This document shows, piece after piece, positions 1,427 to 22,960 of a stretch of DNA of 29,168 bases (position 1 is its first letter; every line of letters starts with the position of its first letter). The translations under genes and the position numbers were made by a program. Source of the DNA: Bacteroidota bacterium (lineage in GTDB: Bacteria; Bacteroidota; Bacteroidia; J057); contig JBCAWW010000001.1 of NCBI GenBank assembly GCA_038534415.1, forward strand, positions 1-29,168, written 5' to 3'. The notes under the pieces are model-generated. The model made no database searches, had not been told where the DNA came from, and saw only the letters and a program-made list of their open reading frames with translations.

Positions 1427-1510
1427 TCTCTAATTCAGGTTCATTCAGACAGCTATTTCTGCCATTCAGCGCAAAAGCCTAGATTTCAGCCCTTAGCTTC
1501 CGTATTCTTG

Positions 1511-1546
1511 TAGTGTAATTAATTGATACCCCTTACAATTACACTA
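1511..1546. promoter_or_regulatory. 10-bp inverted repeat with 16-nt spacer (candidate operator or 5' UTR hairpin)
   Basis: TAGTGTAATT (1511-1520) and AATTACACTA (1537-1546) are exact reverse complements, ending about 30 nt before the next start codon. Confidence 0.4.
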
Positions 1547-1575
1547 GTTTCTAACCGTTCTTTTTGATGCCACAA

Positions 1576-1953: not shown

Positions 1954-1989
1954 AAGGTCCAACTTTTCTCTATCCTCCCTTCTATTGTA

Positions 1990-2025
1990 CTCCCGGCCTC
2001 CCACCTTTGGCCGGGAGCTTTTTTT
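1990..2025 (+). terminator. Intrinsic terminator
   Basis: Stem CTCCCGGCC/GGCCGGGAG with a 10-nt loop, followed by C and T7, 36 nt after the stop at 1953. Confidence 0.8.
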
Positions 2026-2031
2026 GGGCTA

Positions 2032-2332
2032 CTGCTTCGCAGAACGCCTCCCTCTGCCTCCTCGGTAGGTTTCTCGTCGTCTCGATGCTCGGGACATTTG
2101 TCGAAATGTATACAATCTTCCCGCTTTTCCCCTTCGAAGGGGAAACCAAGCGGAATGGGGATGTTGCAATTTTCCTGCTTCGCAGAACGCCTCCCTCTGC
2201 CTCCTCGGTAGGTTTCTCGTCGTCTCGATGCTCGGGACTTTGTCGAAATGTCTACAATCTTCCCGCTTTTCCCCTTCGAAGGGGAAACCAAGCGGAATGG
2301 GGATGTTTCAATTTTACTGCTGCGCAGAACGC
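2032..2332. repeat. Tandem repeat of a 143/142-bp palindrome-rich (REP/BIME-like) unit; two copies plus a 16-nt partial third
   Basis: Units start CTGCTTCGCAGAACGC at 2032 and 2175, and CTGCTGCGCAGAACGC at 2317. Each full unit contains the perfect 18-bp palindrome TTCCCCTTCGAAGGGGAA. The copies differ by a 1-nt indel and a few substitutions. Confidence 0.92.
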
Positions 2333-2383
2333 TGCTAATCGTTCCGCGAAGCGGTAATCCTCCCCCAAAACGATCAAATACCC

Positions 2384-2427
2384 AAAACGCCCAATATCCA
2401 CTTCATGATTGGACATTGGGCGTTTTT
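2384..2427 (-). terminator. Probable terminator hairpin downstream of the ABC1/UbiB gene
   Basis: AAAACGCCCAAT (2384-2395) pairs with ATTGGGCGTTTT (2415-2426), with an inner TCCA/TGGA pair. It lies 16 nt past the minus-strand stop. Confidence 0.6.
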
Positions 2428-2443
2428 AATTTTGTCTCCCTCC

Positions 2444-3763
2444 TTAGTCAAAGGCAGGCATATAGCGCTTGGTTTCAACTTTGGCTTTGAGCTTGTTGAG
2501 GATCGAAAATAGCCCAAAATAGGCTCTATTCATATACAGGCCGTCTTTGTCACCACGAGGGGCAGAGTTCCGCATGGCGGGATTACGACCCATACGATCA
2601 CCAAAAGCATAGATGGCATCAAAAAAGACATCGTCTCCAAAATCAAAGTGGTCTGCATGAAAGGGCTTGGTAACCATTTGGAGTGCTTCCTTGAAGATTT
2701 CGCTATAGGTGGCGATCTCTTTAGGGGTATCGGTATCTAAGATGATCTGAGCGGCTCTGGCCCCTTCGAGAAAGGCTGCGTCGTTTTCGAGCACCTTAGG
2801 ATTGAGCAGTTTGAAATAGCTCTGATAAAAGCTATCGGATATTTCTTTTACGCATCCAAAATCCAAGATTCCTACGGAACCGTCCTGTCTAAACAGAAAA
2901 TTGCCAGGATGTGCATCTGCGTGCATGATGCGCAGCTCGTGCACTTGAAAGTTGTAAAAGTCCCAAAGCGCCTGTCCGATGGAGTCGCGAATCTCCTGTG
3001 AAGGATTACCCTCCAAAAACTCATCCATATGCTCGCCCTCCATCCAATCCATCGAAATGATGCGATCACAGGAAAGCTCCGGATAGTAAGTGGAAAATAC
3101 CAGATTAGGGATATGGGCCGCTTTTTCGGAGATAAATTGCGAGCGTTCTAGCTCTAATTCATAATCGGTTTCTTCGACCAGTCGAGCTTTGACCTCTTCG
3201 AAATAGATTTCGATCTCCGAGTCTTTCCAACCAAACATCCTCCTTGCGATGGGGCGTACGATCTTAAGGTCAGACAATACGCTATCGCCTACGCCTGGAT
3301 ATTGGATTTTGATCGCGAGTGTCTTATCGCCTTTGAAGGCTCTGTGCACTTGTCCGATGGAAGCAGCATGAGCCGCTTGGATCTCAAATTTGTCGTATAG
3401 CTCACTAGGGGCCTTGCCAAAGTATTTGCGAAAGGTCTTGACGATCAGCGGGCCAGAGAGTGGGGGGGCTTTGTGCTGCGCTTGCGAAAATTGATTGGCG
3501 AAGGCCGGTGGTAAAGCACCTTTGTCCATACTGAGCATCTGGGCAACTTTGAGGGCGCTCCCCTTCATGGTACTCAGGCTCTCGTATATATCTTCCGCAT
3601 TTTTTTGATCAAGTGCATCTTTGTCAGCTTCTCCATTGACGAGCTTTTTGGCGTAATGCTTGGCATAGTTGCCACCAACCTTAAAGCCCGTTTTGACAAA
3701 GCGGCCAGCACGAGAGATTTTGGAAGTAGGGATTTTATCTTGCGTATTTTTCTGTTCGGACAT
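2444..3763 (-). CDS. AarF/ABC1/UbiB family atypical protein kinase-like protein
   Basis: Motifs KGSALKVAQMLS, AASIGQVH, AIKIQYPGV, EETDYELE, HADAHPGNF and LDFG. Confidence 0.93.
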   Translation of the reverse strand: MSEQKNTQDKIPTSKISRAGRFVKTGFKVGGNYAKHYAKKLVNGEADKDALDQKNAEDIYESLSTMKGSALKVAQMLSMDKGALPPAFANQFSQAQHKAPPLSGPLIVKTFRKYFGKAPSELYDKFEIQAAHAASIGQVHRAFKGDKTLAIKIQYPGVGDSVLSDLKIVRPIARRMFGWKDSEIEIYFEEVKARLVEETDYELELERSQFISEKAAHIPNLVFSTYYPELSCDRIISMDWMEGEHMDEFLEGNPSQEIRDSIGQALWDFYNFQVHELRIMHADAHPGNFLFRQDGSVGILDFGCVKEISDSFYQSYFKLLNPKVLENDAAFLEGARAAQIILDTDTPKEIATYSEIFKEALQMVTKPFHADHFDFGDDVFFDAIYAFGDRMGRNPAMRNSAPRGDKDGLYMNRAYFGLFSILNKLKAKVETKRYMPAFD

Positions 3764-7513: not shown

Positions 7514-8728
7514 ATGAAGCCCATTTCTTTTATTCCCTCTCTGACCCCACTGCGAGGAATTGCGGCAACGCTCGTTGTCCTCTTTCACTTTGACCTGTTT
7601 ATCGGCCCGATTGCCCCGGTGGGCAATATGATGGTGGATAAACTCTATCTCATGGTAGACCTCTTTTTTGTGCTTAGTGGATTTATCATGTATCACGTTT
7701 ACGGCAGCTGGTTTGCTGGCGGTGTTGGTCAAGAACGCTTTCTGGATTTTATGAAGGCACGTTTTGCTCGCCTTTATCCGCTGCACCTTTTTATGCTTAT
7801 CTATATGGTAGGCTGGGCGTGTGCCCTATGGGTGCAACTCGATAATTCTGCCATCCCAGAGATCGTCCAATCCATCCTCGATCCCAAGGCCATTCCGACC
7901 AGCTTACTATTGGTGCAAGCTTGGGGCATGCACTTCAATGCACCCTGGAACACTGCCTCTTGGTCTATTAGCGTAGAATGGTTGCTTTATTTGGCCTTTC
8001 CCTTTTTGGTACTCTTTATGGCTCGCTTCAAGGCCTCGGCCAAATGGATATTGACGGGAGTTTCTATCAGTGGTTTACTGCTCATCATGTATTGGATACA
8101 GCCCCAATATGAGCTCCTTTTTGCCCAAGAATTTGGCCTAGAAGGGGGCCGTGGCCCGAAAAACACCATCGACCTCATCACCGGTCCTGCTTTGCTCAGA
8201 GGCCTTTGTGGTTTTATCGCCGGTATGATAGCCTATGAGGCTTATCAGCAGCAATGGATGAAATCAGTCCTGCAAAAAGGTTTTTGGTTTCTCAGCCTGT
8301 TCCTCTTCATGTTTGCGCTATGGATAGGAGATTTGCTGCCAGATGTCGTGGCAGTGGCTTTATTTGCGATCTTGATCTTGCATGCCGCTTATGTCGAAGG
8401 CTTGACCAAACGGATACTTAACAATAAGGTCTTTAGCTATCTCGGTGATATTTCCTTTTCCATCTATATGGTCCATATCCCACTGATCTTATCCTTTTTT
8501 ATGTACAATATGATGCAAGGCAATATGCCCGATCCGGGCGCGGAAACCTCAGCCGAAGTCAACTGGATTGGCAATTGGATCGGAGCCTTGATCTTTTTGG
8601 CCATCAGCATTGGCGTTGCCTCACTCACTTACCGCTTTATTGAGTTACCGATGCGCCGCAAGCTAAAAGCTTATTTCCTTGGCTCGAAATCTCAACTAGC
8701 TTCGCCAGAGGTCGTCAAAAATATTTAG
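7514..8728 (+). CDS. Acyltransferase family 3 (OafA-like membrane O-acyltransferase), standalone without SGNH domain
   Basis: LTPLRGIAATLVVLFH, VDLFFVLSGFIM, RFARLYPLH, SWSISVEW, YLGDISFSIYMVH, and TYRFIELPMR; about 10 TM segments. Confidence 0.93.
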   Translation: MKPISFIPSLTPLRGIAATLVVLFHFDLFIGPIAPVGNMMVDKLYLMVDLFFVLSGFIMYHVYGSWFAGGVGQERFLDFMKARFARLYPLHLFMLIYMVGWACALWVQLDNSAIPEIVQSILDPKAIPTSLLLVQAWGMHFNAPWNTASWSISVEWLLYLAFPFLVLFMARFKASAKWILTGVSISGLLLIMYWIQPQYELLFAQEFGLEGGRGPKNTIDLITGPALLRGLCGFIAGMIAYEAYQQQWMKSVLQKGFWFLSLFLFMFALWIGDLLPDVVAVALFAILILHAAYVEGLTKRILNNKVFSYLGDISFSIYMVHIPLILSFFMYNMMQGNMPDPGAETSAEVNWIGNWIGALIFLAISIGVASLTYRFIELPMRRKLKAYFLGSKSQLASPEVVKNI

Positions 8729-8879: not shown

Positions 8880-11800
8880 TTAGTTCTCTCGCTGCAGTTT
8901 GAAGCTTTGTTTATAGCCATCTTCAAAAGTTACTTCAAGATAGTAGTAGCCTTCTGGCAGATTACCCAATCCTGCGATCTCAACTTCGCCTTCGCTGAGG
9001 CGACGCTCCACAGGAATGGCAATTTCACTCCCGCGGACATCAAAGAGCTGTATTTGCATGATCTTTTTTGCACGATTGCTGCTAATACTCAACTCTGATT
9101 GAAATGGATTCGGGCCAAACTCTACATTATACTGGGTATTTAAGCGGTTGAGTTGGATTACGTCCGAATAAGAAAAGACTCCATCAAAATCGACTTGGCG
9201 TAAGCGATAATAGACATACTCATCAAAGGGCAGGGCGGCTGCGTCTTGATCTTTGGTCGTATAATATCGCGTTTGTTGACTAGTGCCTGCACCTTCTACT
9301 TTTATGACATCGCTCCACTCATTGAGGTTGTAGCTTCGCTCAACGATAAAGTAGTCATTGTTAAATTCGGAGGCGGTGTTCCATTCGAGAAGGGCATCTT
9401 TCTCTTTCCCTTTTTCCCAAGCCGCGCTGAAATTCAACAGCTCCACGGGGAAGATGACCAAGGGCGTAGTTGGATCGGCTGAAAGTACGTAGTTGTTGAG
9501 GGTGGCATTGTTGTCTTGCTCGCCGCCGTCTGTACCATCACGTACTACGGTAGCCCCAGTAGGTTGGCCACTAAAGCTTGCGGTAACCGTATTGGGAGGA
9601 ATATTACCCGAAGGGGCAAACTGATTGATATCCGCACTAAAGGTAATGGTGACCGTTCCGCCAGGCGGGATGTCGAAATCTCCCGAAGTCCAAGAGTCGC
9701 CATTGTTGGTAAAGCTAGGCGTCTCTGCTCCTCCCGTAGTTCCCGTAACTGTCAAACTATTGATGTTTTGGAGATAAGCCGTAGCCACATCTGCTAGGGC
9801 CACATCATAAGCAGTTTCGGTCCCATCGTTGGTGATCACCAATTGGAAATCCACCTGGTCGCCTGGTTCGTGACTCGAGGTCAAGATCGTATTGGCGATG
9901 TCCAAATGCGGTTCTCCAACCTCCACAGTGGCTGAGTCTCGAATCACATCACTAAATGGAGCGTCTGGATGCACCGGATTGTCAAAGGTCAAACCTACTA
10001 CATTGTCTAGCTCTGTACCGCTATTGAGCCCGGCGTCGTATTGGTTGCCGATCACATTGCGGACCACGGCATCGTAGCTCAAAATGATGGTTTGGGCAGA
10101 GCCAGTTTGATTGTCGATGTTGCCGAGATTCAGATTGAGCGTCTGGGCAGTAGGATCGCTAAACTCAATCGGGCTATTGTCTGTGATGCCAGCATAAACG
10201 GGTACAGGACTTTGATTGAGACTACCGGTCAGATAATCCAAGCCAGCATCCAATACATCGGCAAACAGATTGTCGGTATTGTTTAGGACCACATTATTGG
10301 GTACGACCAATTGTACTTGATACTCGACGGTATCACCAATATTATAGTTGTTGGGGCTTGGAGGGTTGAGGATAGATTTGGTCAAGTCTAGGTCCATAAC
10401 GGTCAGCTCATGAGTGGCGTCCGCTGTATAATCAGAATCTCCATGACTGCCATCATAAACGCGTTCACCATTGATGTCTCCGGGATTGCCCGGCGTTGCC
10501 GAACTCGTACCCTGAGTGCCTGGCAAACTACTCATGCGCGCCCAAGCTTTGTTGTCGAGCGAGTCTGCATCAGTCTTGAGTTCGGGGATACCGTCTGCCG
10601 CTGCGCGGAACGTTACGTATGCGGTATCGCCCGGCGCTATCGAATCGATGGCAAAGCTCACGATACCATTACCCGCATCAGAGTTATCCGTCTCATTGCC
10701 CACATTGGTCGTACTGCTAAAGGCAATATTACTCAGGCTTTCGTATTTCTGTGCGCCAAAAGGTATCGTATCAGTTACGATCACATTGTAGGCGGTGGCC
10801 GTATTGGCGGTGGCAGAATTAAACACCTTGAGGGTATACTCTAGCGTTCCACCAGCGGTGAGAATATAAGAGCTTGAACCAGCTTTCTGGATACCAATCG
10901 CTGCTTCACGGATCGTTACCGTAGGATCACTACTCGTGCTCAAAGTTTGCTCAGCCAAGGCTCCATCCAAATATTGGAAGGTACCATCATTGCTCAAGCT
11001 CTGGCCGGCATCATTGCTGATACCGCTTTCGTTGGAAACTACGGCTTGAAGGCTAAGCGTATAGGCCTCTGCAGTGCCATCGGTGTCAGTATTGATGATA
11101 TCACCAAGAAACAAACTGATAAAGCGATTACTAGCGATCGTGATATCTGTACCATCGGTCAAGGAAACATTATTTCCACTTGTAGCACTATTGATACCGC
11201 CTGGATTGGTAGCGCTATTGAGGCCGGTGTTGAAGGTACGACTCAGCTGCGCTGAACTCGCGACATAACGCAAGCCTGCGGGAAGGCTGTCAATCAAAAA
11301 GGCTTCTTTCAGATTACCCTTGGGTACTTCAATATTGATGGCGTAGGTCAACACCTCTCCGATCAATACATCCGTGCCGCTACTACCGCCTTCGCTAGTG
11401 GCGCTCAAACTCTTGCTCAAATCAGCAGCATCTAAAGTACCGCTGCCTGTATGGATCGGCGTTTGGGTAGGATTGATGCCATCATCGTCATTGGCGTTGT
11501 CATCACTCAGGGTCGGAGTGCCACTATTGACATCGGGTGAAGTGATGCTCGCTTGGTTAGGGATCAGATCACCATCAGAGGCACCGCTAGGCGTAACGCT
11601 AAAACTAACCGTCGCTACTCCGCCTGGCTCTATTGGGCCAAGATTGACTGAGATATCGCCCGAAGTGGCGCTGGTTACGGTACCTTGACTAGTGGTCACA
11701 CTCCCACTCACCAATACCGTATTGGTGGGGGCAGCATCACTAAACTGAGCGTTCGACGCAGTCGCAGAACCCGTATTGATAACCGTAATGGTATAAGTAT

Positions 11801-14800
11801 AACTATCACTTGGATCAACCAAGCCATCATTATCGGTATCATCGGTCAAGGCCCAACGTTTTTCAGCATCTAAGGCTGGAGCAGCAGTAGCGCCATCGAC
11901 CGCAACAAAAACAGTCTCTTGATTGCCATCGCTAGGATCGCCATTGCTATCGGTTTCGGTAGGATCGGTTTGATCAGAATCGGCACTACCCTGATTGGTG
12001 AAAGTTTCGCTGGTACCCGTAACGCTATTGATAACGACATCTAGGGTTACACTGGCTACTTCCCCTACCTCTAGCGTTACTCCGGTCCAATTGATCGTCG
12101 GATAACTGGCTGTACTTAGGCTACCTTCAGTAGGTGTGCCTGCGGCAGAAAGGCCTAGGCCAGTAGGGATGACATCCGTCAAACTAACAGTGGTCAACTG
12201 CTCTGCGCCTCGGTTTTCGAGGATGAAAGTATAGCGCATAATATCAGTAGTACCCACTTCGTCTGCAGTAGAATTGTCGGTAAGCCAGCTCACCGTTTTT
12301 TGAGCGTATAGATCATTGACTACCTCTGGCTCAGGTCCTACAATAATGTCTGTTGGTTGATCACCATTGGCATCTACTCCATCTACATCCGTGGGTTCTG
12401 GTTCAGTTTCATCGCTGTCTACTGATCCTTGATTGCGAATCAAAGTTCCATCGGTAGTGCCACCGCTGACGCTGACATCAAAAGTGATGGTGACACTTGC
12501 CCCATTGGTCATATTGAAGCCATCTACTTGGACTAAGCTAGCGGTAGAATTGCTGCTAACTCCAGCCGTAGTGGTAATATTGCTGAGGCTGGTAGTATTG
12601 TCGGGGATGTTGTCTGTAAAGACGACATTATTGACTGTGGCGCCTGTATTGTTGGTTAGGACGATGGTGTAAGTAAGGACTTCACCCGCATCTAGTTGAT
12701 CATTGGTATTGCCATCGACATAGGCTACTGTCTTTGTCGCGTCAATGGCATTGAGAGCAGGCGTGACAGTAGTCGAAGTGCTAACATCATAGTGGCGTTC
12801 GACGAAGGCGCCCGCAGGATCACCAGGCTGAGTATCGTAGCTATCGCTGAGCCCAATCGAAGGCGTGATGGCGGTCCCTAAAATGGCATCATCATCAACT
12901 GTTGCCACAAAGGTAAAAGATACATTGCCCCCTGGGGTCAAAGAGCCTAGGGTAAAAGCCAGGCTATCGGTATCTGCGTCGTCGATGCTAAAACCGCTGC
13001 CATTGGCGTTGAAGCTGCTGCCTAGATAAGTCATATCTAAATCATCCAATAGACTCGCAAGCGCAATGTCGTGAGCCGTGGCACCGCCTGTATTGTTGAC
13101 CGTTACCGTAAAGGTGACCGGTTCACCCAAAGCGGGAGTTGCATTGTTAGGCGTAATGCCTACTACCAAATTAGGCTCAATGATATCAATAGAGAGATTG
13201 TTGGAATAAATCGCACTATTGATGGCGGAGGTAACGTAAGACAGATTGCCTTTGCTAAAGCCTGCTTGGATATTGGTGGCGTCGTCTAGGACTTGGGCGG
13301 TCAATGTTACCGTAATGGTATCGTTAGTGGCATCGCCATCGGCGGTATTGGTGACATTGCCAAAGGTAAAGCTGATTTTACCGGCATTGCCGACTACACC
13401 ATCATCGGTCATAGTACCATAACTAAAGTTGCCAGGAGAAGATTCACTCACAGAGAGAAAACCTAAGCCATCCACTAAGGAATCTACTACCACTACGCTA
13501 CCTACAACCCCTTCGGGGATGAAGACTTTGAGTTCGTAAATCACATCATCGCCGATGGTAAAATCATTGGTGGCGTGAGTAGCGCTAAGTCTTTTGACGA
13601 TCGCGGGTGTACCGGCAAGCGTGGTTGTTACTGTGCCCGCCTCATTGTAGTTGTTGAGGTCTGTATCATTGTCATCATCTGAGCTTGGCGTACTGCCATC
13701 TCGGCCTCGAATATCATCGTTGAGTAAACTATTATAGTCTGCGGTGCTATTGAGGGTGAGATCAGCGTTTGCGCCAGCCGTATTGATAACTGTCGCATCA
13801 AAGGTGAGCAATAAGGTATCACCCGCAGGGATATCAAAAGCCGCGAAGCTAAGCTGATCGCCAGTGTTTGTCGCGGTGCCTAAGCTGATATCACTAGCTG
13901 AAATAGCGGTTCCAGTACCGGTTTGAACTACACTACCACTGGTGTTGCTTACTACAATATTGTCATAAAAAGGGCTGCTACCTCCAAGTAATTCGGGCGG
14001 AAGAACGTTGGCAAAATTTACCCCATAAGCCGTTGCCCCACCGGGCCCATTGATAATCCGGATCGTATAGGGGATCGTACCACCAACGGCATAATTACCG
14101 CCTCCATCACTCATTTCGATAGTGAGATTGGGTTCGATGACGGTTACGGTAGCACTGCTGCTCAGTGAATCCGCTCCACTAGAACCCGTGAAGCTGATCG
14201 CCGCATCATTGTCCAAAGTAGTGGCCGCCTGGTTGGCTAACAGATTACGGACCTCGACTTCATAACTGATCGTGATATCTTGGCTAGTACTATTTTGATT
14301 GGTCAAGGTGCCAAAGTTCCAAATCACTGGATCATCATCTGCGGCAGTACTTGGACTTGGGGTGTCTGCAAACACACCAGTCGGAAGCGTAATGGAGACT
14401 TCGTCTCCGGTATATTTGAGCCCTGCGGGCAAATTATCTGTGATCGTAAAGCTTTGCATCGTACCACCCGGTACGGAAATCGTCAGATTCATGATCGTAG
14501 AATCGCCTACTGCCAAATTTGCATCGCCTGTTTTGGCCATAGTTGGCTCGTCTAGGGTGATCGTGGTGGAGGTCGCTACATTGAGATCATTGCTGCCAAC
14601 CGCTGAACCGGTTCGTTCGCCATCGGCATCTCCTGCAGTATTGGCGGTATTGCTACCAGAAGAAGTATTGCCAGCGGCTCCATCGAGACTGGTAATGCTA
14701 CCCCTAACATCATTGATAAGATCGCTATTGGCCTCGGCGAGGCTATCGATGACGGCTGTGTATACCACAGTAATCGTATCGCCCGGATCGAGTGAGTCAA

Positions 14801-17800
14801 GGGTACAGCCTCCATTGGTCGCATCAAAAATCAACTCATTGCCGTCGCCGCCAAACTCAAAACAAGCACTGATGTCAGAACCATCGCCCGAATAGGTAGC
14901 CGAGCTAAGATTGGGTTGTTGGCCTGCATTGGCGCTGGTGCCGAAGAAAGTTGCGGGTAAATCATCACTGAGGGCGAGATTGTATCCCGTGGCGGAGTGG
15001 GTGCTATTGGAGTTGAAAAACTTAGTGGTAAAGGTGACGGTTTCCATCCCGCTTGCTGACCCACCCGCGGGAGCGGCAGAGGTCGTTACGCCAAGATCGG
15101 GCTCTTTGAGCGTGAGGGTGATCGCATCACTATCAGAGATTGGATTGGCATCACCATCTTGATATTGTAGGCCTACGGTATTGGTTTTGCTGTCGCCAGC
15201 ATTGTTGTCGCTATTGTTGAGAACGAGGACTTCGTAGGTGATGATCAGCTGTTCGGCATCAGCATCTGAGACGACTTGGTCATCATTATTGGTGATGTCG
15301 CCAAGGTCGAAACCAAGGATTTGCCCGCTGGCTACATTTCCGCTGACACTCGGCACTAAGACTGCTGGGGTCCCATCTATGGTACCGGCTACGCTAGTAC
15401 TAATTTCTCCGCCATTGAAATCTGCTACGGCTGAAATACGGGCCGAATGACTGCCTCCTGTATAGGTGGCATCTAGGTATTGAAAACCTACTGGTAAAGT
15501 ATCCGTCAAGATCGGATTGCTACCGTCTTCGAGGGTGGTCCCTTCGGGAACGGTCAGTGCGATCTGGTAGGTCAATATTTCTCCTATGCCTGCTTCCGTA
15601 GCGCCGGTATTGACATCGGTGCTGCTGATAAGGGTCTTGGCAAGCAGAGGGATGCCAGTAGTGGTGAGGGTTTCGGTATTTTGGCGGCTACTAGAACGTT
15701 CTTCGGGGGCAGTCGTGCCGGCTTGAGTAGTGGCTACAACTGTACCCACATTGTCGAAGCTAGTGCCTGAGTTGACCCCAGATTTGATTTGGACGGTAAA
15801 CTCCAAATCTCTGCGTCCCTCTGCTACTGTTAAGGTAGACTTGGTAAAAGTTACCGTTGGATTGCTGTAGCTATAATTAAAACCATCGGCATTGACGAGG
15901 GTGACGGTACTGAGATCAAAAACATTGCCATCGAGTATATCGGTGGCTACGATATCATGAGCCGTAGCGGTACCGTTATTCCTGACTCGAAGCTCGACCG
16001 TAATCACATCGCCTGCATCTCCAGTGTTAGAAGACAATACTTTATTGATCGTAACCTTAGGCTCTGCAAATGGTACCACATCTGTATCGCTGATGCTACT
16101 GCCTGAAATGCTATTGCTAGTAAGTGTAACGGTATTGGTCTTGGCCTGCGTTGCATCTTCCCCATCGTTGGCATTGTCATCCATCACAACCGCCTTCATG
16201 GCGACGATGAAATCGTTATTGGCAGCATTGTTATCTCCAACTACTGTGGTTGCACCCGAAAAAGTAAAGGTAACCGTTCGGCCAGCCGCAACTGTACCAC
16301 TAGTCGCTACAGTAGGCGAGCTACTGACCGTACCATTAAATCCAGTATTGTCAACGACATAAGAGACATATTCAAAGCCAGCTGGCAAAGCATCCGTCAA
16401 GACTAAGTCCGTCGTCGTACCTTCAGTCAGGTCCACGGTGAGATGATAGGTGATCGTATCCCCTGCGGTAACGTTTGTACCAGCAGTGCCTGTACCATCA
16501 GGTGAAACTGCGTTTAGGCTTTTACTGATACTTGGATCAGAGGTGCTGATATTATCGCTGGCGCTATCAGTGGTAGTGCGTTGTTCGGGAGCGGAGCCCG
16601 GCTCGCTATCTCCGCTTACACTTGCCTGATTGTTGTAGGTAGTGTTGGGCTCGACATTGCTATCTAGGTCGATGGTAAAAGTGAGCACTTTGCTTGCTCC
16701 TGCCGCAAGACCCGTGGCCCCGTTCAGCGAATAGCTGACCGTAGAACCCGCTAAGCCATCAAAAGTCCAATCGCCGAGAGTCGTGGTGTTGCTGAGTGAG
16801 CTTAGATTGAGAAAATCACTCAAGCCATCGAGATTATTGCTGGCGGTAATGTCGTAGGCGGGGGCGGTACCCGTATTGCTGACCGTCATCGTGACGGTGA
16901 TTTGATCGCCAGCATCACCTTGGCTGGGCGTCGAAAGGTCCAGCGTAATATTAAGCTCTGGCTCAGTGAGAGTAACAGCATCTGTCGCGACGATATCTGC
17001 GCCGACGATGTCGGTATAAGTCAGTTGTGATTGATTGGTTTTGCTCTGTGCGGTCGGGAGACCATCATTGGCTGGGTCATCTAATACTACCGCTTCAAAG
17101 CTGAGAAGAAAGGCATCATTTGTATTGACATTGTCGTCGCTATTGCTGGGGCTGCCCATATCAAAAGTTACGGTCTGCGGGCTTCCGGCTGCACCTGTAC
17201 CGCTAGTGCCTACTGTAGGCGAGCTGCTCACCGTGCCATTAAACGCACTGCTATTCACGACAACTGAGCTTGCTACATAAGCGAGCCCTTCGGGCAAGGT
17301 GTCGGCCAAACTTAAGGAGGGAGTCGTTCCCTCAGGGAGAGTAACGGTCAATTGATAAACAACGGTATCACCCGGTACTAAAATATTGGCGTTGCCAGAG
17401 CCATTGGGAGAGATTGAGGTATGCGTTTTGGCCAAAGTCGGTCGGTCGATAGAGATTTGAACACTGTCAAGCACTTCCTCAAAAGGATCGGCTAAGGGTT
17501 GTTCTGTCTCGGGTATGGCTTGCCAAGCAGCACTAATCCCATTGAAAAAGCTATCGTTAGGTGCTACCGTAGCGGCAATATCGCAGGTACAAGTGATCGT
17601 GACAGTATCTCGCTTAGAGGCATCACCGCTAGCGTATAAACTGTCTAGCGTCAAGCCGTTGACATCAAAAGGATTGCCGCTATAAAGCCCTACTCCTACT
17701 GCAGTACCATCTCCATACTTGACGGGATCGGTCGCGATCATGCTACAATTGGTCAAACTAGCGGGCGCGTCATCTTTGATGACGAGATCGTAAGCTCGGG

Positions 17801-19850
17801 CACCGCCTGAATTGATCGCCGTAAGCACGAAGGTGATTTCATCGCCAGCATCTGCTTCGCTAATGGTACTAACGTTCGGCACGGCCGGACTCGCGGGTGT
17901 GATCGTGCCATCGCCACTCGTCGCACTCACGCCTTTGGCAACTGAAATATCGGGAGAACAGATATTGAGATACTGGACTTGGACATCTGAGATGACATCT
18001 CCGTCGCTATTTGTCGTGGAATAATAAAATAAATCTGATAGTGCCAAACCATCTGCAAAAGGCTGATAATCGATCGGAATATCTACCAATACCGAAACTG
18101 TTTTACTGACCGTGGTGCCCTCCAAGTCTGGCCAAAGGATTTGCAATGAGTTACCTGCGGTACTTTTGGTAATATCGGCCGTCAAGGGGACAAATGATGG
18201 GTCCGTATGGTCTGAGGCTAGTCGTATATCAAAGCCATTGCCAAAGTTATCCGTATCGACTTCCGAAACATCAAAAACCGGTAGGGGAAAGAAATTGATG
18301 AAGGTTAGGTTTTCGGTATCGCCCGAAGGAACCGTTACGGTCAACTTAAAGGTAATAACCTCGCTAGGCACCCAGCAGCTAGGATCTCCGGGACTATTGA
18401 ATAGACTCAGATTGGGACTAGAAGATTGAATACTAACCCCTGCACTTGAATTATCGCCGCAGCCGGAGGCCTTGCCCAACAAATCATAGGCTAGGCTCGT
18501 CGGTTTGCCCAAGGCATCATTGGCCAAAAGGGGATCGTCATTAGTAGGCGGGTTATAATGTTGCAGTACATCTCCTCTAAAGGTGAGGGTTCCTTCACTC
18601 CCGTTACTGATGTTGCCGCTTACCGCATGCACATCAAAGACTAAAGTAGTAGTATTGTCTCCATTGACTGTGATCACTGGGGTGATGTTTTGAGCGGCCC
18701 CAGCATCTATACTGATGGTCGGCTGAAAACCCGCGTCATAGGCGATGCCGGCAGGCAAGGTTTCCGTTATGACCGCGGCATCAATAGGATTACTGTCAAA
18801 GTCTGAAACCTGAAAGGAGCTGGTATAAGTTACTTTGTCGTCGGGCTTCACATTGGTCGGAGAGGCATTGCTTTGGATCGGCATATGTTTGGCCGTAACT
18901 ACATCCCGCGCTGAATCAGGATTGATCGCAACCAATCCATACATAGCCGTAAAATCGGCACTATTGCTAATAATAGAATCTTCACAGACTGTCTCGTCCA
19001 ATATATCTTTGATATGGACATCAAAACTGATCGAAATTTCATTGCCGGAGGTCCCCACTGTAGTAGGACAAGTAGCACTCAAAGTCCTCGTACCGGCTGT
19101 ATAAGTAGCGGTACAAGCCCCATCTACAATATCGCCCACAAACTCAACCTCCTCGGGTAAGACATCCGTAAGGCTAATCGCAGTCAAGGTCTTCCCCGCC
19201 GCAATATCTACATTAAGCGTATAGGTAAATGGCCAAGAACTCCCCGGTGCTCGCTCGCTTTCAGGAGCATTATTGGTTTTGGTAAATGTTACCAAAGTGG
19301 GTTTGCTATTGGCTGTGATCGTCGTGCCAAAGATAGGCCCATTGTCCCCCGTAGGAGTATCACCATATTGGAGGCCCGGCTGAAACTTATAGACATAGTT
19401 AGAGTCTAATGTTGCACCATCTAAAAACTCCACACAAACCGCAAAAGTCAAATCAGGTGTGGTCGAAACCAATGAGCCAACCGGATAGCTCAATACATAT
19501 AGGGTATCCCCACTCACTGCACCATCGCTGGCCGTAACACTCGTCCCACTGATCGGGTCATTGAGCGCAGGCACTCCGTCTGGGAAAGCCCCTACTTTGA
19601 CAGTCGTAAGGCTTGTACCTAAAAAACTGACACTCTTGAGGGTGACATCGGGGGGCAACATGATCCGATAGTAGGGACCATATCCGGGATCTCCCGTCAA
19701 ACTCAAGTCCAAATTGAAACAGTAGGTTTCATTGATAAAGTTGGAGGCTGGCACGGATTCAGTGCCCACTGGAGTTTGGGCCATGAGTGGTAATATGCAT
19801 AGGGTAGCAAAGAGCAATAGTGTTATTCGTCTAAAAAGGATAAGGAGCAT
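8880..19850 (-). CDS. Giant (3656 aa) T9SS-secreted adhesin-like protein with about 22 tandem isopeptide-forming fimbrial-D2/DUF11-type Ig-like domains and a type-A CTD
   Basis: Signal peptide ends ..LPLMA|Q. Repeats include IGEILTYQIALTVPEG..LTDTLPVG..KTN and DAGD.ITV...N.G...A.D. The pre-CTD Ig domain is FPVELLNF..EWNTASEFNNDYF.VERS..YYRLRQVDFDG, and the CTD is PNPF..LFDVRG..LPEGYYYLEV..KLQREN. The ORF is uninterrupted over 10,971 nt. Confidence 0.9.
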   Translation of the reverse strand: MLLILFRRITLLLFATLCILPLMAQTPVGTESVPASNFINETYCFNLDLSLTGDPGYGPYYRIMLPPDVTLKSVSFLGTSLTTVKVGAFPDGVPALNDPISGTSVTASDGAVSGDTLYVLSYPVGSLVSTTPDLTFAVCVEFLDGATLDSNYVYKFQPGLQYGDTPTGDNGPIFGTTITANSKPTLVTFTKTNNAPESERAPGSSWPFTYTLNVDIAAGKTLTAISLTDVLPEEVEFVGDIVDGACTATYTAGTRTLSATCPTTVGTSGNEISISFDVHIKDILDETVCEDSIISNSADFTAMYGLVAINPDSARDVVTAKHMPIQSNASPTNVKPDDKVTYTSSFQVSDFDSNPIDAAVITETLPAGIAYDAGFQPTISIDAGAAQNITPVITVNGDNTTTLVFDVHAVSGNISNGSEGTLTFRGDVLQHYNPPTNDDPLLANDALGKPTSLAYDLLGKASGCGDNSSAGVSIQSSSPNLSLFNSPGDPSCWVPSEVITFKLTVTVPSGDTENLTFINFFPLPVFDVSEVDTDNFGNGFDIRLASDHTDPSFVPLTADITKSTAGNSLQILWPDLEGTTVSKTVSVLVDIPIDYQPFADGLALSDLFYYSTTNSDGDVISDVQVQYLNICSPDISVAKGVSATSGDGTITPASPAVPNVSTISEADAGDEITFVLTAINSGGARAYDLVIKDDAPASLTNCSMIATDPVKYGDGTAVGVGLYSGNPFDVNGLTLDSLYASGDASKRDTVTITCTCDIAATVAPNDSFFNGISAAWQAIPETEQPLADPFEEVLDSVQISIDRPTLAKTHTSISPNGSGNANILVPGDTVVYQLTVTLPEGTTPSLSLADTLPEGLAYVASSVVVNSSAFNGTVSSSPTVGTSGTGAAGSPQTVTFDMGSPSNSDDNVNTNDAFLLSFEAVVLDDPANDGLPTAQSKTNQSQLTYTDIVGADIVATDAVTLTEPELNITLDLSTPSQGDAGDQITVTMTVSNTGTAPAYDITASNNLDGLSDFLNLSSLSNTTTLGDWTFDGLAGSTVSYSLNGATGLAAGASKVLTFTIDLDSNVEPNTTYNNQASVSGDSEPGSAPEQRTTTDSASDNISTSDPSISKSLNAVSPDGTGTAGTNVTAGDTITYHLTVDLTEGTTTDLVLTDALPAGFEYVSYVVDNTGFNGTVSSSPTVATSGTVAAGRTVTFTFSGATTVVGDNNAANNDFIVAMKAVVMDDNANDGEDATQAKTNTVTLTSNSISGSSISDTDVVPFAEPKVTINKVLSSNTGDAGDVITVELRVRNNGTATAHDIVATDILDGNVFDLSTVTLVNADGFNYSYSNPTVTFTKSTLTVAEGRRDLEFTVQIKSGVNSGTSFDNVGTVVATTQAGTTAPEERSSSRQNTETLTTTGIPLLAKTLISSTDVNTGATEAGIGEILTYQIALTVPEGTTLEDGSNPILTDTLPVGFQYLDATYTGGSHSARISAVADFNGGEISTSVAGTIDGTPAVLVPSVSGNVASGQILGFDLGDITNNDDQVVSDADAEQLIITYEVLVLNNSDNNAGDSKTNTVGLQYQDGDANPISDSDAITLTLKEPDLGVTTSAAPAGGSASGMETVTFTTKFFNSNSTHSATGYNLALSDDLPATFFGTSANAGQQPNLSSATYSGDGSDISACFEFGGDGNELIFDATNGGCTLDSLDPGDTITVVYTAVIDSLAEANSDLINDVRGSITSLDGAAGNTSSGSNTANTAGDADGERTGSAVGSNDLNVATSTTITLDEPTMAKTGDANLAVGDSTIMNLTISVPGGTMQSFTITDNLPAGLKYTGDEVSITLPTGVFADTPSPSTAADDDPVIWNFGTLTNQNSTSQDITISYEVEVRNLLANQAATTLDNDAAISFTGSSGADSLSSSATVTVIEPNLTIEMSDGGGNYAVGGTIPYTIRIINGPGGATAYGVNFANVLPPELLGGSSPFYDNIVVSNTSGSVVQTGTGTAISASDISLGTATNTGDQLSFAAFDIPAGDTLLLTFDATVINTAGANADLTLNSTADYNSLLNDDIRGRDGSTPSSDDDNDTDLNNYNEAGTVTTTLAGTPAIVKRLSATHATNDFTIGDDVIYELKVFIPEGVVGSVVVVDSLVDGLGFLSVSESSPGNFSYGTMTDDGVVGNAGKISFTFGNVTNTADGDATNDTITVTLTAQVLDDATNIQAGFSKGNLSYVTSAINSAIYSNNLSIDIIEPNLVVGITPNNATPALGEPVTFTVTVNNTGGATAHDIALASLLDDLDMTYLGSSFNANGSGFSIDDADTDSLAFTLGSLTPGGNVSFTFVATVDDDAILGTAITPSIGLSDSYDTQPGDPAGAFVERHYDVSTSTTVTPALNAIDATKTVAYVDGNTNDQLDAGEVLTYTIVLTNNTGATVNNVVFTDNIPDNTTSLSNITTTAGVSSNSTASLVQVDGFNMTNGASVTITFDVSVSGGTTDGTLIRNQGSVDSDETEPEPTDVDGVDANGDQPTDIIVGPEPEVVNDLYAQKTVSWLTDNSTADEVGTTDIMRYTFILENRGAEQLTTVSLTDVIPTGLGLSAAGTPTEGSLSTASYPTINWTGVTLEVGEVASVTLDVVINSVTGTSETFTNQGSADSDQTDPTETDSNGDPSDGNQETVFVAVDGATAAPALDAEKRWALTDDTDNDGLVDPSDSYTYTITVINTGSATASNAQFSDAAPTNTVLVSGSVTTSQGTVTSATSGDISVNLGPIEPGGVATVSFSVTPSGASDGDLIPNQASITSPDVNSGTPTLSDDNANDDDGINPTQTPIHTGSGTLDAADLSKSLSATSEGGSSGTDVLIGEVLTYAINIEVPKGNLKEAFLIDSLPAGLRYVASSAQLSRTFNTGLNSATNPGGINSATSGNNVSLTDGTDITIASNRFISLFLGDIINTDTDGTAEAYTLSLQAVVSNESGISNDAGQSLSNDGTFQYLDGALAEQTLSTSSDPTVTIREAAIGIQKAGSSSYILTAGGTLEYTLKVFNSATANTATAYNVIVTDTIPFGAQKYESLSNIAFSSTTNVGNETDNSDAGNGIVSFAIDSIAPGDTAYVTFRAAADGIPELKTDADSLDNKAWARMSSLPGTQGTSSATPGNPGDINGERVYDGSHGDSDYTADATHELTVMDLDLTKSILNPPSPNNYNIGDTVEYQVQLVVPNNVVLNNTDNLFADVLDAGLDYLTGSLNQSPVPVYAGITDNSPIEFSDPTAQTLNLNLGNIDNQTGSAQTIILSYDAVVRNVIGNQYDAGLNSGTELDNVVGLTFDNPVHPDAPFSDVIRDSATVEVGEPHLDIANTILTSSHEPGDQVDFQLVITNDGTETAYDVALADVATAYLQNINSLTVTGTTGGAETPSFTNNGDSWTSGDFDIPPGGTVTITFSADINQFAPSGNIPPNTVTASFSGQPTGATVVRDGTDGGEQDNNATLNNYVLSADPTTPLVIFPVELLNFSAAWEKGKEKDALLEWNTASEFNNDYFIVERSYNLNEWSDVIKVEGAGTSQQTRYYTTKDQDAAALPFDEYVYYRLRQVDFDGVFSYSDVIQLNRLNTQYNVEFGPNPFQSELSISSNRAKKIMQIQLFDVRGSEIAIPVERRLSEGEVEIAGLGNLPEGYYYLEVTFEDGYKQSFKLQREN

Positions 19851-20145
19851 TACGACTTTTGGATTATCCGTCTTTGTGGATTATATTTCGATGATTTGAA
19901 ATATTTATAACAAAGATTTAATAATCATTTAAATTATTTTCTGCTAAAAAATTCCTTGAATAACATTTCTGTTGCCTCCTTTGGCTCATATTCTGCCTCT
20001 TTTCCTTTACTTGCTTTGCAGGCAAGATGGACCTTGGCTTGCTTGATGAGGGCTTAGTCGGCTAAAAATGAGCGCTTAAACTCAATTACTTACTCAGGCA
20101 ATCTGATAAAAGGGCTAGGGATGTTCGATTTTCTCACATTCCTCT

Positions 20146-20153
20146 TACCTTCG
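20146..20153 (+). promoter_or_regulatory. Bacteroidota -7 promoter element variant (TACCTTCG) directly before the MBOAT start
   Basis: One mismatch to TAnnTTTG; ATG at 20157 follows after 3 nt. Confidence 0.4.
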
Positions 20154-20156
20154 CGT

Positions 20157-21554
20157 ATGCTCTTCAGCTCTCTCAGCTTCTTGGGATTATTTTTGCCGCT
20201 AGTTTGGGTGGTCAATCTTTTGTTGCCCGCTAAAGCGCGGAACGTCTGGCTCCTGCTGCTGAGCTTATGGTTTTATGCTTGGGGAGAAGGGGCATGGGCC
20301 TTTTTGATGTTGGGCTCTATTCTCCTCAATTATTTTCTTGGTCTCAAGGTCGGGCCAAAGTCTTCTCGCCAAAAGCTTTGGCTTAGTTTGGCGGTGAGCA
20401 TAAATCTGGCTTTACTCCTTCTCGTCAAATATGCCGGCTTTCTCCTCAGCAATCTCAACCAACTGCTGTTGCTTTTTGAGGATGTCTCACTACTGATACC
20501 AGCCGTCAATTTCAGCCTGCCCATCGGCATTTCCTTTTTCACCTTTCAGGCTCTGAGTTATCAGATTGATCTCTATCGTGGCAAATATCCGCCTCAGACC
20601 AATCCCTTAGACCTTGGGCTGTACATTGCCTTTTTTCCTCAGCTGATTGCGGGGCCCATCGTGCGCTATGAGACCTTTTTTCCGCAATTGACGGAGCGAA
20701 AATTTGATTGGGAACAAAATATAGTCGGCATCAAACGCTTCGTGATTGGGCTCGCCAAAAAGGTATTGATCGCCGATCCCTTGGCCTTAGTCGCTGACAA
20801 GATCTTTTTGCTTCCAGACCAAAGTCTCAGTCCTTGGCTCACCTGGCTAGCCATGATCGCTTACAGCTTGCAGATCTATTTTGACTTTTCTGCCTACTCT
20901 GATATGGCGATTGGTCTCGGCAAGATGCTCGGCTTCGACCTACCCGAAAACTTTCGCTTTCCCTATATCGCCCGTAGCATCCGTGAGTTTTGGCAGCGCT
21001 GGCATATTACCCTATCAACTTGGTTTCGGGATTATTTATACATCCCCCTAGGCGGCAATCGACACCATCTCTATCGCAATCTGTTGTTGGTATTTGTGCT
21101 TTGTGGCTTTTGGCATGGCGCGAGCTGGAATTTTCTCATTTGGGGACTATTTCATGGACTATTTTTGGTCTTAGAGCGCACTGCTTGGGGACGAGTATTG
21201 CAAAAGTTTCCTCGCTTCTTACAACATATCTATACCCTTTTAGTGGTGCTCTTTGCCTGGGTCTGGTTTCGGGCCGAAGATGTCTCCCAAGCGCTCCTAA
21301 TCTATGAGAAGCTATTTGGGTTTGCTGCCAATGCGCAGGCTGATAATTACGCCTACTTCCTGCTGAGCTATGATATTATTTGGCCTTTGCTCCTTGGGAT
21401 CGGTTTTGCCATGCCGCTTTTCCCCTTCGTGGAACGCTTAATTGAGCGTTCGCCAAAGGCGCTCGAAAGCATACTTTATCTCGGCTTGACGCTGCTGAGC
21501 CTCCTTGCTGTCCTCACCAATGCCTATCACCCCTTTATTTACTTCCGCTTTTGA
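20157..21554 (+). CDS. MBOAT family O-acyltransferase (AlgI/PatA-like)
   Basis: MLFSSLSFLGLFLP start, LPIGISFFTFQALSYQID, FFPQLIAGPIVR, QIYFDFSAYSDMAIG, FWQRWHITLSTWFRDYLYIPLGG, catalytic-His motif WHGASWNF. ATG 20157 is preferred over the ORF-track start at 20121. Confidence 0.93.
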   Translation: MLFSSLSFLGLFLPLVWVVNLLLPAKARNVWLLLLSLWFYAWGEGAWAFLMLGSILLNYFLGLKVGPKSSRQKLWLSLAVSINLALLLLVKYAGFLLSNLNQLLLLFEDVSLLIPAVNFSLPIGISFFTFQALSYQIDLYRGKYPPQTNPLDLGLYIAFFPQLIAGPIVRYETFFPQLTERKFDWEQNIVGIKRFVIGLAKKVLIADPLALVADKIFLLPDQSLSPWLTWLAMIAYSLQIYFDFSAYSDMAIGLGKMLGFDLPENFRFPYIARSIREFWQRWHITLSTWFRDYLYIPLGGNRHHLYRNLLLVFVLCGFWHGASWNFLIWGLFHGLFLVLERTAWGRVLQKFPRFLQHIYTLLVVLFAWVWFRAEDVSQALLIYEKLFGFAANAQADNYAYFLLSYDIIWPLLLGIGFAMPLFPFVERLIERSPKALESILYLGLTLLSLLAVLTNAYHPFIYFRF

Positions 21555-22960
21555 ATCGCTCTCACTCACATATCGCCGCTAAAATAGGGAGCCTTGGCTT
21601 CATCCTTTTGCTTTTGGCAATGGGACTGCGTGGCTTGTGGCTGGCTAAACTCGACGGTAAAAATCTCTTTCATAAATTTCGACTAGATCGGCTTTCGATT
21701 ACGACCGCCGCTTTTGACGCCGACCTCAATCAATATGCAGGCGGTGATACCGCTTTGTTTCATCCCTTGGGTACGCTCAACTATCAGCTGAGACATCGCT
21801 CCTTAAGCCGCAAAATATTGCCCGGACAAACTGATTGGTTCTTTTTGTGGAACGATCAGACGGATTTTGATCCATTGGAACAAAGATTAGGACTGAGCCA
21901 GTTGAGCCCATTACAACTCAGGGAGTTGGTCCTACAATTTCAACAGCGAGCCTTCTGGGCCAAGCAAAACAATAGCGAATACCTCATCCTCTTGGCTCCC
22001 AATAAAGCCAGTATTTATGGCGAGCATTTGCCGGGGAGTTTGCTGCTAGCGGAGCAGACATTTTTAGATGTTTTATACCCTGCCTTGCAGAACGCTCAGC
22101 TCCCTGTCCTTGACTTGCGCCAAGCGCTGCAAGCGGCCAAGCCCAGCGGTTTGCTTTACTATCGACACGATACCCATTGGAATGATCGCGGTGCATGGGT
22201 GGGTACGCAGGCTGTCATGGATCGCCTTGGCTTGGGCAAGCTCCTCATCAATCCACAAAGACTACAATTGCAGGCCCAAAAAGGAGGCGATCAGCTTCGC
22301 ATGGCTCGATTGCGTGAAAGTGGGTTTACAGACTCGGCCTATCGCTATCTGGGACCCGATACTATCCCCTTCCAAGTGCTACCCAATCCCATCGGTTCGC
22401 CAGCCGATCTCCCCTATCAAAGCAAAGCAAATGAGGCGCTAGGACCAAAAATACTATTGTTTCATGATTCTTTTGGGCATGCGATGCGGCCTTGGTTTAG
22501 TTATGCCAGTCGCGAGTTTCGTGCGCTTTGGGCTTGGGGGGAGTTTCGGCCCCTCTATCTGCGGCGCTACCAGCCGGACTATGTGGTGGACGAGATCATC
22601 GAACGTAATCTGGCAAAACCCTTTCCCGGCAATCAAAGTGAGCTAATCAAGGCCTTTTGGCTGGCCCATTGGCCTGAAACAGGCGCAAAACGCTATCAGA
22701 CTGAGTATAGTTTGGGGCAACTGCAGGCTTGGATACAGACGCAAGCTGATACCGAGAAACTATTGGTGGTCAAGCTCAAAATCATCGCTGAAGAGGCCGG
22801 AACAATCAGCCTTAGCAACGGACTCAGGGTCAAACAAAGCTACCTCTTTGACGCAGGTCAACATACGCTCTACTTCCAAGTCAATCCGCAACGGCCTTTA
22901 GCGCTAAAGCTGGATACTGAACTGAAGTTTACGGACTTGGAAGTGATCGAATTGGATTAA
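21551..22960 (+). CDS. AlgJ/AlgX (ALGX-family) SGNH-like O-acetyltransferase with N-terminal membrane anchor
   Basis: TTG start overlaps the MBOAT stop (TTGA). One N-terminal TM, then DWFFL, PNKASIY, YYRHDTHWN (DxH) and ILLFHDSFG (catalytic Ser position). Confidence 0.85.
   Translation: MNRSHSHIAAKIGSLGFILLLLAMGLRGLWLAKLDGKNLFHKFRLDRLSITTAAFDADLNQYAGGDTALFHPLGTLNYQLRHRSLSRKILPGQTDWFFLWNDQTDFDPLEQRLGLSQLSPLQLRELVLQFQQRAFWAKQNNSEYLILLAPNKASIYGEHLPGSLLLAEQTFLDVLYPALQNAQLPVLDLRQALQAAKPSGLLYYRHDTHWNDRGAWVGTQAVMDRLGLGKLLINPQRLQLQAQKGGDQLRMARLRESGFTDSAYRYLGPDTIPFQVLPNPIGSPADLPYQSKANEALGPKILLFHDSFGHAMRPWFSYASREFRALWAWGEFRPLYLRRYQPDYVVDEIIERNLAKPFPGNQSELIKAFWLAHWPETGAKRYQTEYSLGQLQAWIQTQADTEKLLVVKLKIIAEEAGTISLSNGLRVKQSYLFDAGQHTLYFQVNPQRPLALKLDTELKFTDLEVIELD

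Follow-up and report, generated by a model that had tools for sequence, protein, structure and literature searches.

The window analysed here, a 29,168-nucleotide stretch of DNA, encodes a giant protein that is probably a stand-alone fibrillar surface protein of a marine Bacteroidota bacterium, exported by the T9SS, in which the domains carrying a Lys-Asp-Asn triad are most likely crosslinked by isopeptide bonds. Its gene is a single unbroken open reading frame (8880..19850, minus strand) whose translation of 3656 aa has zero internal stops; the mature protein has a mass of ~366 kDa and a pI of ~4. From N- to C-terminus it consists of a signal peptide, a head, 21 CnaA-like Ig domains, a small domain and a type A T9SS CTD (Table 1). 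The 21 homologous domains (residues 178-3458) were delimited with an HMM built from the protein's own repeats. This confirms the domain order proposed in a preliminary description of this DNA, namely a head and four N-terminal domains (residues 26-797) followed by A/B pairs, a DUF11 block and again A/B pairs, and the motifs by which that description distinguished the A and B repeat types are found in the sequence. In orthologs, a hydrophobic leader likewise precedes the start of the mature protein, AQ-P-VP, which is itself conserved. The database gene call (P0002, 3634 aa) starts 22 codons downstream, and the leader would be lost from it.

Table 1. Features of the giant gene and its flanks, with positions in the window and residues of the 3656-aa protein.
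Feature	Position	Strand	Residues	Remarks
Putative signal peptide	19776..19850	-	~1-25	MLLILFRRITLLLFATLCILPLMA/Q; from reading the sequence, with the upstream ATG
Head (D0)	19320..19775	-	26-177	β-sandwich, no Pfam family
D1	18888..19319	-	178-321	CnaA-like; K191/D229/N296
D2-D4	17460..18887	-	322-797	Three divergent Ig domains; parsed with the protein's own HMM
Five A/B pairs	12780..17459	-	798-2357	
A domains of the five-pair block		-	798-962, 1100-1262, 1395-1582, 1763-1905, 2076-2224	All with K/D/N
B domains of the five-pair block		-	963-1099, 1263-1394, 1583-1762, 1906-2075, 2225-2357	Full triad in 1263-1394 only
Three DUF11/CLIPPER domains	11445..12779	-	2358-2802	Pfam DUF11 and TIGR01451
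Triads of the three DUF11 domains		-	K2373/D2413/N2473, K2518/D2559/N2619, K2664/D2705/N2765	Full triad in each
Two further A/B pairs	9477..11444	-	2803-3458	
A domains of the two further pairs	within 9477..11444	-	2803-2974, 3148-3312	Both with triad
B domain	within 9477..11444	-	2975-3147	K2989/D3027/N3100
B domain	within 9477..11444	-	3313-3458	Without Lys
Pre-CTD domain	9129..9476	-	3459-3574	~115 aa, no family match
T9SS type A CTD and stop codon	8880..9128	-	3575-3656	PF18962
Flanking O-acyltransferase	7514-8728			Acyl_transf_3
Flanking O-acyltransferase	20121-22960			MBOAT and AlgX-like

The stalk domains had been likened to the isopeptide domains of pilins, and both sequence profiles and predicted folds bear this homology out. 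Over the whole protein, TIGR04226 (RrgB_K2N_iso_D2) matched seven stretches (1.3e-65, 219.8 bits; curated cut-off 30 bits) and DUF11 (PF01345) matched ten (1.6e-70, 235.1 bits; gathering threshold 24.6 bits), in both cases well beyond chance; a six-frame search of the genome found eight separate stretches of the open reading frame above the DUF11 cut-off. When the seven A domains were scanned singly, all matched TIGR04226 (E 3e-5 to 2.6e-10), five of them over the cut-off (34-41 bits) and the other two at 24.8 and 28.0 bits. D1 reached 28.9 bits against the same profile and D4 27 bits against DUF11. Pfam at E≤0.1 gave zero matches for the head, D2, D3, the A domain 1395-1582 and the pre-CTD domain. 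TIGR04226 was present in 46 of 200 sampled Bacteroidota genomes, frequently within giant open reading frames.

Structure prediction was performed for two segments, and the models matched pilin isopeptide folds and the CLIPPER domain 9IFR with Z-scores of 12-13.5 and rmsd of 2.0-3.2; all per-domain fold matches come from VIA-align, not from Foldseek. In the AF2 model of an A/B pair (residues 1100-1394, pLDDT 90.4), the A domain superposes on EbpB (Z 13.5, rmsd 2.6, 132 residues aligned), CppA (Z 13.1) and RrgB D2 (2x9w; Z 12.2, rmsd 3.2, 138 aligned). The B domain of the same model (1263-1394) superposes on 9IFR over 115 of 123 residues (Z 12.9, rmsd 2.0) and on BcpA (Z 13.5), and D1 on 9IFR (Z 13.0, rmsd 2.1, 114 aligned) and Mfa5 D2 (Z 12.8). 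Foldseek, given the two-domain model, returned mostly integrin legs and AgI/II C-domains, as alignments of tandem Ig pairs with high rmsd.

The head represents a family outside Pfam. Pfam gave no match for it in this protein or in 48 relatives, and a search of 1.84 billion proteins at E≤1e-3 yielded 165 cluster representatives, in nearly all of which the domain forms the N-terminal end of a giant protein. The motifs G.PGYGPY and GDTPTG.NG are conserved and the Cys pair C44, C139 is invariant. Its AF2 model (pLDDT 94.2) comes closest in fold to a cohesin module (2vo8; Z 12.3, rmsd 2.8, 127 aligned), followed by CppA D2 (Z 11.4); these are generic β-sandwiches that point to no particular ligand, and the head falls in no recognised adhesive family.

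The assignment of the protein as T9SS type A cargo is upheld: the signal peptide and CTD are present, and the genome encodes SprA (1833 bits), PorV (424 bits) and two PorU paralogs in tandem (1214 and 1206 bits). The isolated CTD scored 30.5 bits against PF18962 (Por_Secre_tail; cut-off 27) and 20.4 bits against TIGR04183, under the cut-off of 23; taken together, the pre-CTD domain and CTD have sequence features resembling Bacteroidota Por_Secre_tail clusters (score 0.98 in the atlas comparison), and the orthologs also carry PF18962. By analogy with established T9SS, the Sec system would carry the protein over the inner membrane and folding in the periplasm would precede the T9SS step. The type A CTD would then steer the protein through the SprA translocon, with PorV as shuttle, and PorU would cut off the CTD and probably attach the protein to the cell surface. 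Evidence that PorU anchors type A cargo comes chiefly from Porphyromonas and Tannerella, and culture supernatants of environmental Bacteroidota contain many proteins with a type A CTD. Instead of being anchored, the protein might be released.

A single-protein scan gave four loci, and the close relatives belong to MAGs of Bacteroidota, Bacteroidia and Saprospiraceae. Two orthologs lie in entirely different gene neighbourhoods, with no conserved context pointing to a pathway, and the gene itself stands alone without pilin-operon or fimbrial-operon partners. A functional tie to the flanking O-acyltransferases was rejected, as the neighbourhoods of the two orthologs hold no such genes. A search of sequencing runs recovered 98% of the words in one marine metagenome, possibly the sample of origin, and <20% in each of the others, from which no habitat is concluded; no RNA run was among the listed matches.

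This lack of a conserved neighbourhood, together with the supernatant proteins and a head outside the known ligand-binding families, would suit a T9SS-exported protein that is not a cell-anchored adhesin: one that is released, or that acts at the surface as part of a sheath, as a filament related to motility or as a fibre of a matrix or of aggregates, its crosslinked domains serving only durability in seawater. We consider this unlikely. The succession of signal peptide, head, long repeat stalk and sorting domain corresponds to what is described for fibrillar adhesins by Costa et al. Moreover, in other phyla the same head and stalk are coupled to type B CTD, to IPTL-CTERM-like tails and to outer-membrane-barrel-like tails, and the use of several different cell-anchoring tails argues for a function that includes cell tethering. 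For the head we infer an adhesive role.

Whether the stalk can be crosslinked depends on the triads. The census found Lys, Asp and Asn in 13 of the 21 domains, or 14 counting D2, whose candidate triad (K321/E363/N444) is doubtful and varies among orthologs. Lys is missing at the bond position in the other seven, five of which are B-type and two of which are D3 and D4. Among the 11 domains of B or DUF11 type, five have the triad (1263-1394, the three of 2358-2802, and 2975-3147) and six lack Lys. The seven A copies, by contrast, do not vary at K, at D of D.LP.G or at N of K.N. The preliminary description's "self-crosslinked fibre" could thus hold for the 13-14 triad domains but not for the seven without the bond Lys: with most B domains lacking it, the fibre would be crosslinked only in part.

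The position and conservation of these residues suggest that they form bonds. The triad columns align with residues that are seen to form isopeptide bonds in crystal structures: those of the A domains coincide with K, D and N in the pilin-like protein 8wxd. The A-domain residues fall in model strands 8-17, 51-56 and 136-145; every triad residue in the AF2 models (pLDDT 90.4 and 94.2) lies inside a β-strand, in the expected order. No polar positions are better conserved than K, D and N among the seven paralogous A domains. The triads are kept in five of six full-length orthologs at an overall identity of only 52-58%, and those of D1 and the three DUF11 domains are invariant in all six. In the sixth ortholog, P0005, 7 of the 13 domains with a triad have lost their Lys, their Asn or both, so at least one lineage can do without those crosslinks. 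In four of these domains Lys and Asn were lost jointly, which would be the pattern expected if each residue were useful only with its partner, but as evidence of covariation it is weak because all losses fall within one lineage. P0005 has thus naturally lost about half of its triads.

The tolerance of P0005 to residue loss in seven domains could also mean that, in a CnaA-like fold, Lys, Asp and Asn are kept by descent or for structure and that this protein forms no isopeptide bonds. Many DUF11 domains have no bond according to Costa et al. (PMC12617251). Against this, such residues would hardly be expected to be the most conserved polar positions of seven paralogs, to persist in five orthologs of such low identity, or, with the reservation made above, to be lost in pairs. 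The triad columns of the DUF11 domains align, in addition, with the corresponding K, D and N in 9IFR, a CLIPPER domain of B9T28_05395 from Acinetobacter silvestris in which these residues do bond: the Lys715-Asn806 isopeptide bond was seen by crystallography and is stabilising, and the Lys-to-Ala mutant of the domain is destabilised (PMC12617251). We regard the absence of bonds as improbable.

Our preferred reading, that of a T9SS-exported, partly crosslinked surface fibre, would then be as follows. The chain would comprise ~22 β-sandwiches, the family-less head and 21 CnaA-like domains of the RrgB-D2/CLIPPER (DUF11) superfamily. In 13 of them (14 with the doubtful one), the predicted positions of Lys (first strand), Asp (a central strand) and Asn (a late strand) agree with those in isopeptide domains of known structure, and on the evidence of sequence and models the Lys-Asn bond would most likely arise spontaneously on folding. 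Such a bond would make the domain stiffer and more resistant to heat, proteolysis and mechanical pull. The remaining seven domains, mostly B-type and without Lys, would be ordinary uncrosslinked Ig domains. We infer bond formation, surface anchoring and a fibre length of ~90-125 nm.

The protein was also described as made without a sortase, and sortase PF04203 indeed had no match in the genome, a MAG of an uncultured organism whose 76% completeness means that the absence falls short of proof. That copies of the protein are instead linked covalently into a pilus by an enzyme acting like a sortase, such as PorU, is hardly credible: although the domains are homologous to pilin domains and the genome has two tandem PorU paralogs, the protein has no LPXTG motif and ends in a T9SS CTD, no sortase was matched, the gene has no pilin-operon partners, one 3656-aa chain is already of fibre length, and cargo polymerisation by PorU is not known.

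The backbone pilins RrgB, SpaA, EbpB and BcpA of Gram-positive bacteria share with this protein the domain family, the fold and the alignment positions of Lys, Asp and Asn. They differ in that their fibres are built from polymerised subunits, whereas here a single polypeptide without LPXTG, pilin motif or matching sortase provides the fibre length and is exported over the outer membrane by T9SS. The CLIPPER adhesins, represented by B9T28_05395, are similar in being long single chains with an N-terminal head, a tandem CnaA-like stalk and a C-terminal sorting or anchoring domain, and in carrying the triad in some repeats and not in others. However, B9T28_05395 is 2129 aa long, has a CshA-like head and an OmpA-like domain, and combines CLIPPER with cadherin-like repeats, whereas the present protein has 3656 aa, a family-less head, a T9SS type A CTD and an alternation of RrgB-D2-type (TIGR04226) and DUF11-type domains. 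Mfa5 of Porphyromonas gingivalis is, like it, a Bacteroidota protein with a CnaA-like domain, and D1 superposes on its D2. It is a ~1200-aa tip protein on a type V fimbria, with a vWF head and one proven bond, in contrast to a stand-alone chain of 21 such domains without a fimbrial operon.

These comparisons do not support the novelty implied in the preliminary description, that of isopeptide chemistry routed through T9SS in the absence of a sortase. Mfa5 is targeted to T9SS and its Lys-Asn isopeptide bond was demonstrated by crystallography and mass spectrometry (PDB 6TO1; Heidler et al. 2021, PMC7835359), and Costa et al. 2025 (PMC12617251) surveyed CLIPPER/DUF11 domains in Gram-negative fibrillar adhesins, including their co-occurrence with Por_Secre_tail. 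As Gram-negative T9SS-exported proteins of this type were described in 2021 and 2025, the present one is an ordinary addition to a known class. The architecture is common in Bacteroidota. The idea that isopeptide chemistry needs no sortase and can be routed through T9SS being published, no new question is opened.

What the protein adds is a clean and very long example, with 21 domains and too large for the AlphaFold database, of isopeptide-stabilised Gram-negative fibrillar adhesins. Three points may be of use: a family-less head common to giant surface proteins with different sorting signals, an ortholog (P0005) that could offer a natural comparison for biophysical work, and a conserved pattern in which locked domains alternate with unlocked ones. 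Orthologs at 52-58% identity retain this alternation of A domains, always with the triad, and B domains, usually without Lys. It is conceivable, although we hold it to be rather doubtful, that it is a designed mechanical pattern on a non-Pfam head family fitted to at least four anchoring systems, in which locked A domains stay folded when loaded and unlocked B domains unfold and refold. If so, the A/B pattern would provide a tether that yields under shear, lengthening instead of breaking.

A profile HMM seeded with three repeats and refined iteratively against the giant protein found 21 homologous domains in residues 178–3458, bearing out the domain order that the preliminary description had read by eye (Table). 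Because this one repeat HMM finds all 21 domains, we conclude that the A type (RrgB D2-like) and the B type (DUF11-related) share a common ancestor. As that description had also anticipated, the stalk matched DUF11 in Pfam (10 stretches, 1.6e-70) and the RrgB D2 Lys-to-Asn isopeptide domain TIGR04226 in NCBIfam (7 stretches, 1.3e-65), alongside TIGR01451 (9 stretches) and the Pfam families DUF7619, DUF7507, CARDB, bMG10 and Por_Secre_tail. When domains were scanned singly, TIGR04226 matched every A domain (24.8–41.2 bits) and D1 (28.9 bits). The domain of about 115 aa ahead of the C-terminal sorting domain (CTD) had no Pfam match at E<=0.1; it is kept in orthologs, with the motifs VELL.F.A and YYRL.QVD.DG.

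Features of the giant protein and its surroundings (window coordinates)
Feature	Residues	Position	Strand
Giant gene, 3656 codons	1-3656	8880-19850	-
Signal-peptide codons dropped by the database call		19785-19850	-
Head D0	26-177	19320-19775	-
D1-D4	178-797		
Five A/B pairs	798-2357		
Three DUF11 domains	2358-2802		
Two further A/B pairs	2803-3458		
Family-less pre-CTD domain	3459-3574	9129-9476	-
CTD	3575-3656		
Acyl_transf_3 gene, flanking one side		7514-8728	+
MBOAT gene		20121-21554	+
MBOAT and AlgX-like SGNH pair, flanking the other side		20121-22960	+
Second T9SS cargo, 762 aa		24751-27039	-

The isolated tail scored 30.5 bits against Por_Secre_tail (Pfam threshold 27) and slightly below cut-off against TIGR04183, and it resembles Bacteroidota CTD clusters. 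The source genome, a MAG of 6.7 Mb in 1375 contigs, encodes the T9SS components SprA (1833 bits), PorU (two tandem paralogs) and PorV; no sortase match was obtained in this 76% complete assembly. At 11914–20275 of its contig C7, the two PorU paralogs are full-length (1206 and 1214 bits) and are followed by PorV (424 bits), a duplication perhaps worth attention. Among DNA relatives, the closest are MAGs labelled Bacteroidota, Bacteroidia and Saprospiraceae, and the source sample was likely a marine metagenome. The window also encodes a second T9SS cargo, which contains FG-GAP repeats and matches Por_Secre_tail strongly (45.4 bits).

The seven A domains share invariant columns that include an early Lys, the Asp of D.LP.G and a late Asn. 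These three residues align with their counterparts (K, D and N) in the pilin-like surface protein 8wxd; the A-domain profile also matches SpaA (3hr6) and EbpB. The B/DUF11 profile was aligned with 9IFR, the crystal structure of CLIPPER (DUF11), where its K, D and N columns correspond to K in VDVVK, D in LNDTL and N in VVNKV, with a K-to-N spacing of 91 residues, the same as in the published Lys715–Asn806 bond. In a census of all 21 domains, full triads were found in 13 (D1, the seven A domains, B 1263–1394, the three DUF11 domains and B 2975–3147, with K2989). Lys is missing from seven (D3, D4 and the B domains starting at 963, 1583, 1906, 2225 and 3313), and the triad of D2 is doubtful and not conserved in orthologs. 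The self-crosslinked fibre proposed earlier therefore holds in part: as read from these residues, crosslinks would occur in about two thirds of the modules, not in all.

An AF2 model of residues 1100–1394, computed from an alignment of 42 A/B pairs, reached a pLDDT of 90.4 and placed 6/6 triad residues within beta-strands in the expected order. In superpositions, the A half fits EbpB (Z 13.5, rmsd 2.6), CppA (Z 13.1) and RrgB D2 (Z 12.2), and the B half fits BcpA (Z 13.5, rmsd 2.2) as well as 9IFR (Z 12.9, rmsd 2.0, 115/123 residues). The pair taken together fits the C-terminal domains of P1 and SspB, which carry isopeptide bonds (Z 13.2–14.5). In a model of residues 24–330 (pLDDT 94.2), D1 resembles 9IFR (Z 13.0).

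The feature is real, and the protein belongs to a class already described. Mfa5 of P. gingivalis, whose solved structure contains a CnaA-like domain with an MS-confirmed Lys111–Asn518 isopeptide bond, is targeted to the T9SS by its C-terminal domain according to its authors (Heidler et al. 2021, PMC7835359); its D2 is alike in fold to D1 of the giant protein (Z 12.8). Since three Mfa5 domains span 164 Å (PMC7835359), and about 22 domains of 4–5.5 nm each are present here, a fibre length of about 100 nm is a reasonable inference. A survey of the AlphaFold database renamed DUF11 as CLIPPER, solved 9IFR and found copies without the isopeptide bond (Costa et al. 2025, PMC12617251). TIGR04226 matched 46 of 200 sampled high-quality Bacteroidota genomes (26/109 genera, the window's own genome counted), often within ORFs of 3,000–10,000 aa.

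Five full-length orthologs from metagenomes (3668–3687 aa) share 52–58% identity over the whole length. Four of them keep 13/13 triads, except for Asp-to-Glu at two catalytic positions; in the ortholog P0004, the sole triad loss is the Lys of B domain 2975–3147. P0005 (3670 aa, JGI metagenome) has lost Lys and/or Asn in 7/13 triad-bearing domains, four of them jointly, while other orthologs keep nearly all triads. Joint loss fits each residue mattering only with its partner, weakly so because a single lineage is involved. P0005 would be a natural variant with fewer crosslinks, which indicates that the bonds would be dispensable in its lineage.

The gene is a single uninterrupted ORF on the 29,168-bp contig, all of which is covered by the window, with no difference in GC content from its flanks. 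Read from the ATG at 19850, its N-terminus is a typical signal peptide, which the database call (3634 aa) drops by beginning 22 codons downstream at Met23; the longer reading is favoured because orthologs have a leader preceding a conserved mature start. The gene stands alone, convergent with the Acyl_transf_3 gene and divergent from the MBOAT gene, and neither an operon nor a conserved partner was seen in the window or two ortholog neighbourhoods. These two neighbourhoods are unrelated both to the window's and mutually, and they lack the flanking O-acyltransferase genes, leaving a functional tie between these enzymes and the adhesin unsupported.

The head D0 matched no Pfam family, in the giant protein or in 48 relatives, and may warrant a new family entry. 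Its motifs G.PGYGPY and GDTPTG.NG and a pair of its cysteines (C44, C139) are invariant, and it is predicted to form a beta-sandwich nearest in fold to cohesin modules (Z 12.3); no ligand could be inferred from the fold matches of the D0–D1 model. Among 1.84 billion cluster representatives, 165 homologues were found at E<=1e-3, almost always N-terminal in proteins of 1,000–5,800 aa. Head-plus-stalk relatives with varied sorting signals (P0009, P0010, P0013, P0041, P0048, P0118, P0162 and others) end in CTDs of type A or of type B (CHU_C-like), in IPTL-CTERM-like or outer-membrane-barrel-like tails, or in KTGNP followed by a hydrophobic, basic tail (LPXTG-like). Because the tails vary in this way, the head-plus-stalk module has evidently been plugged into many anchoring systems.
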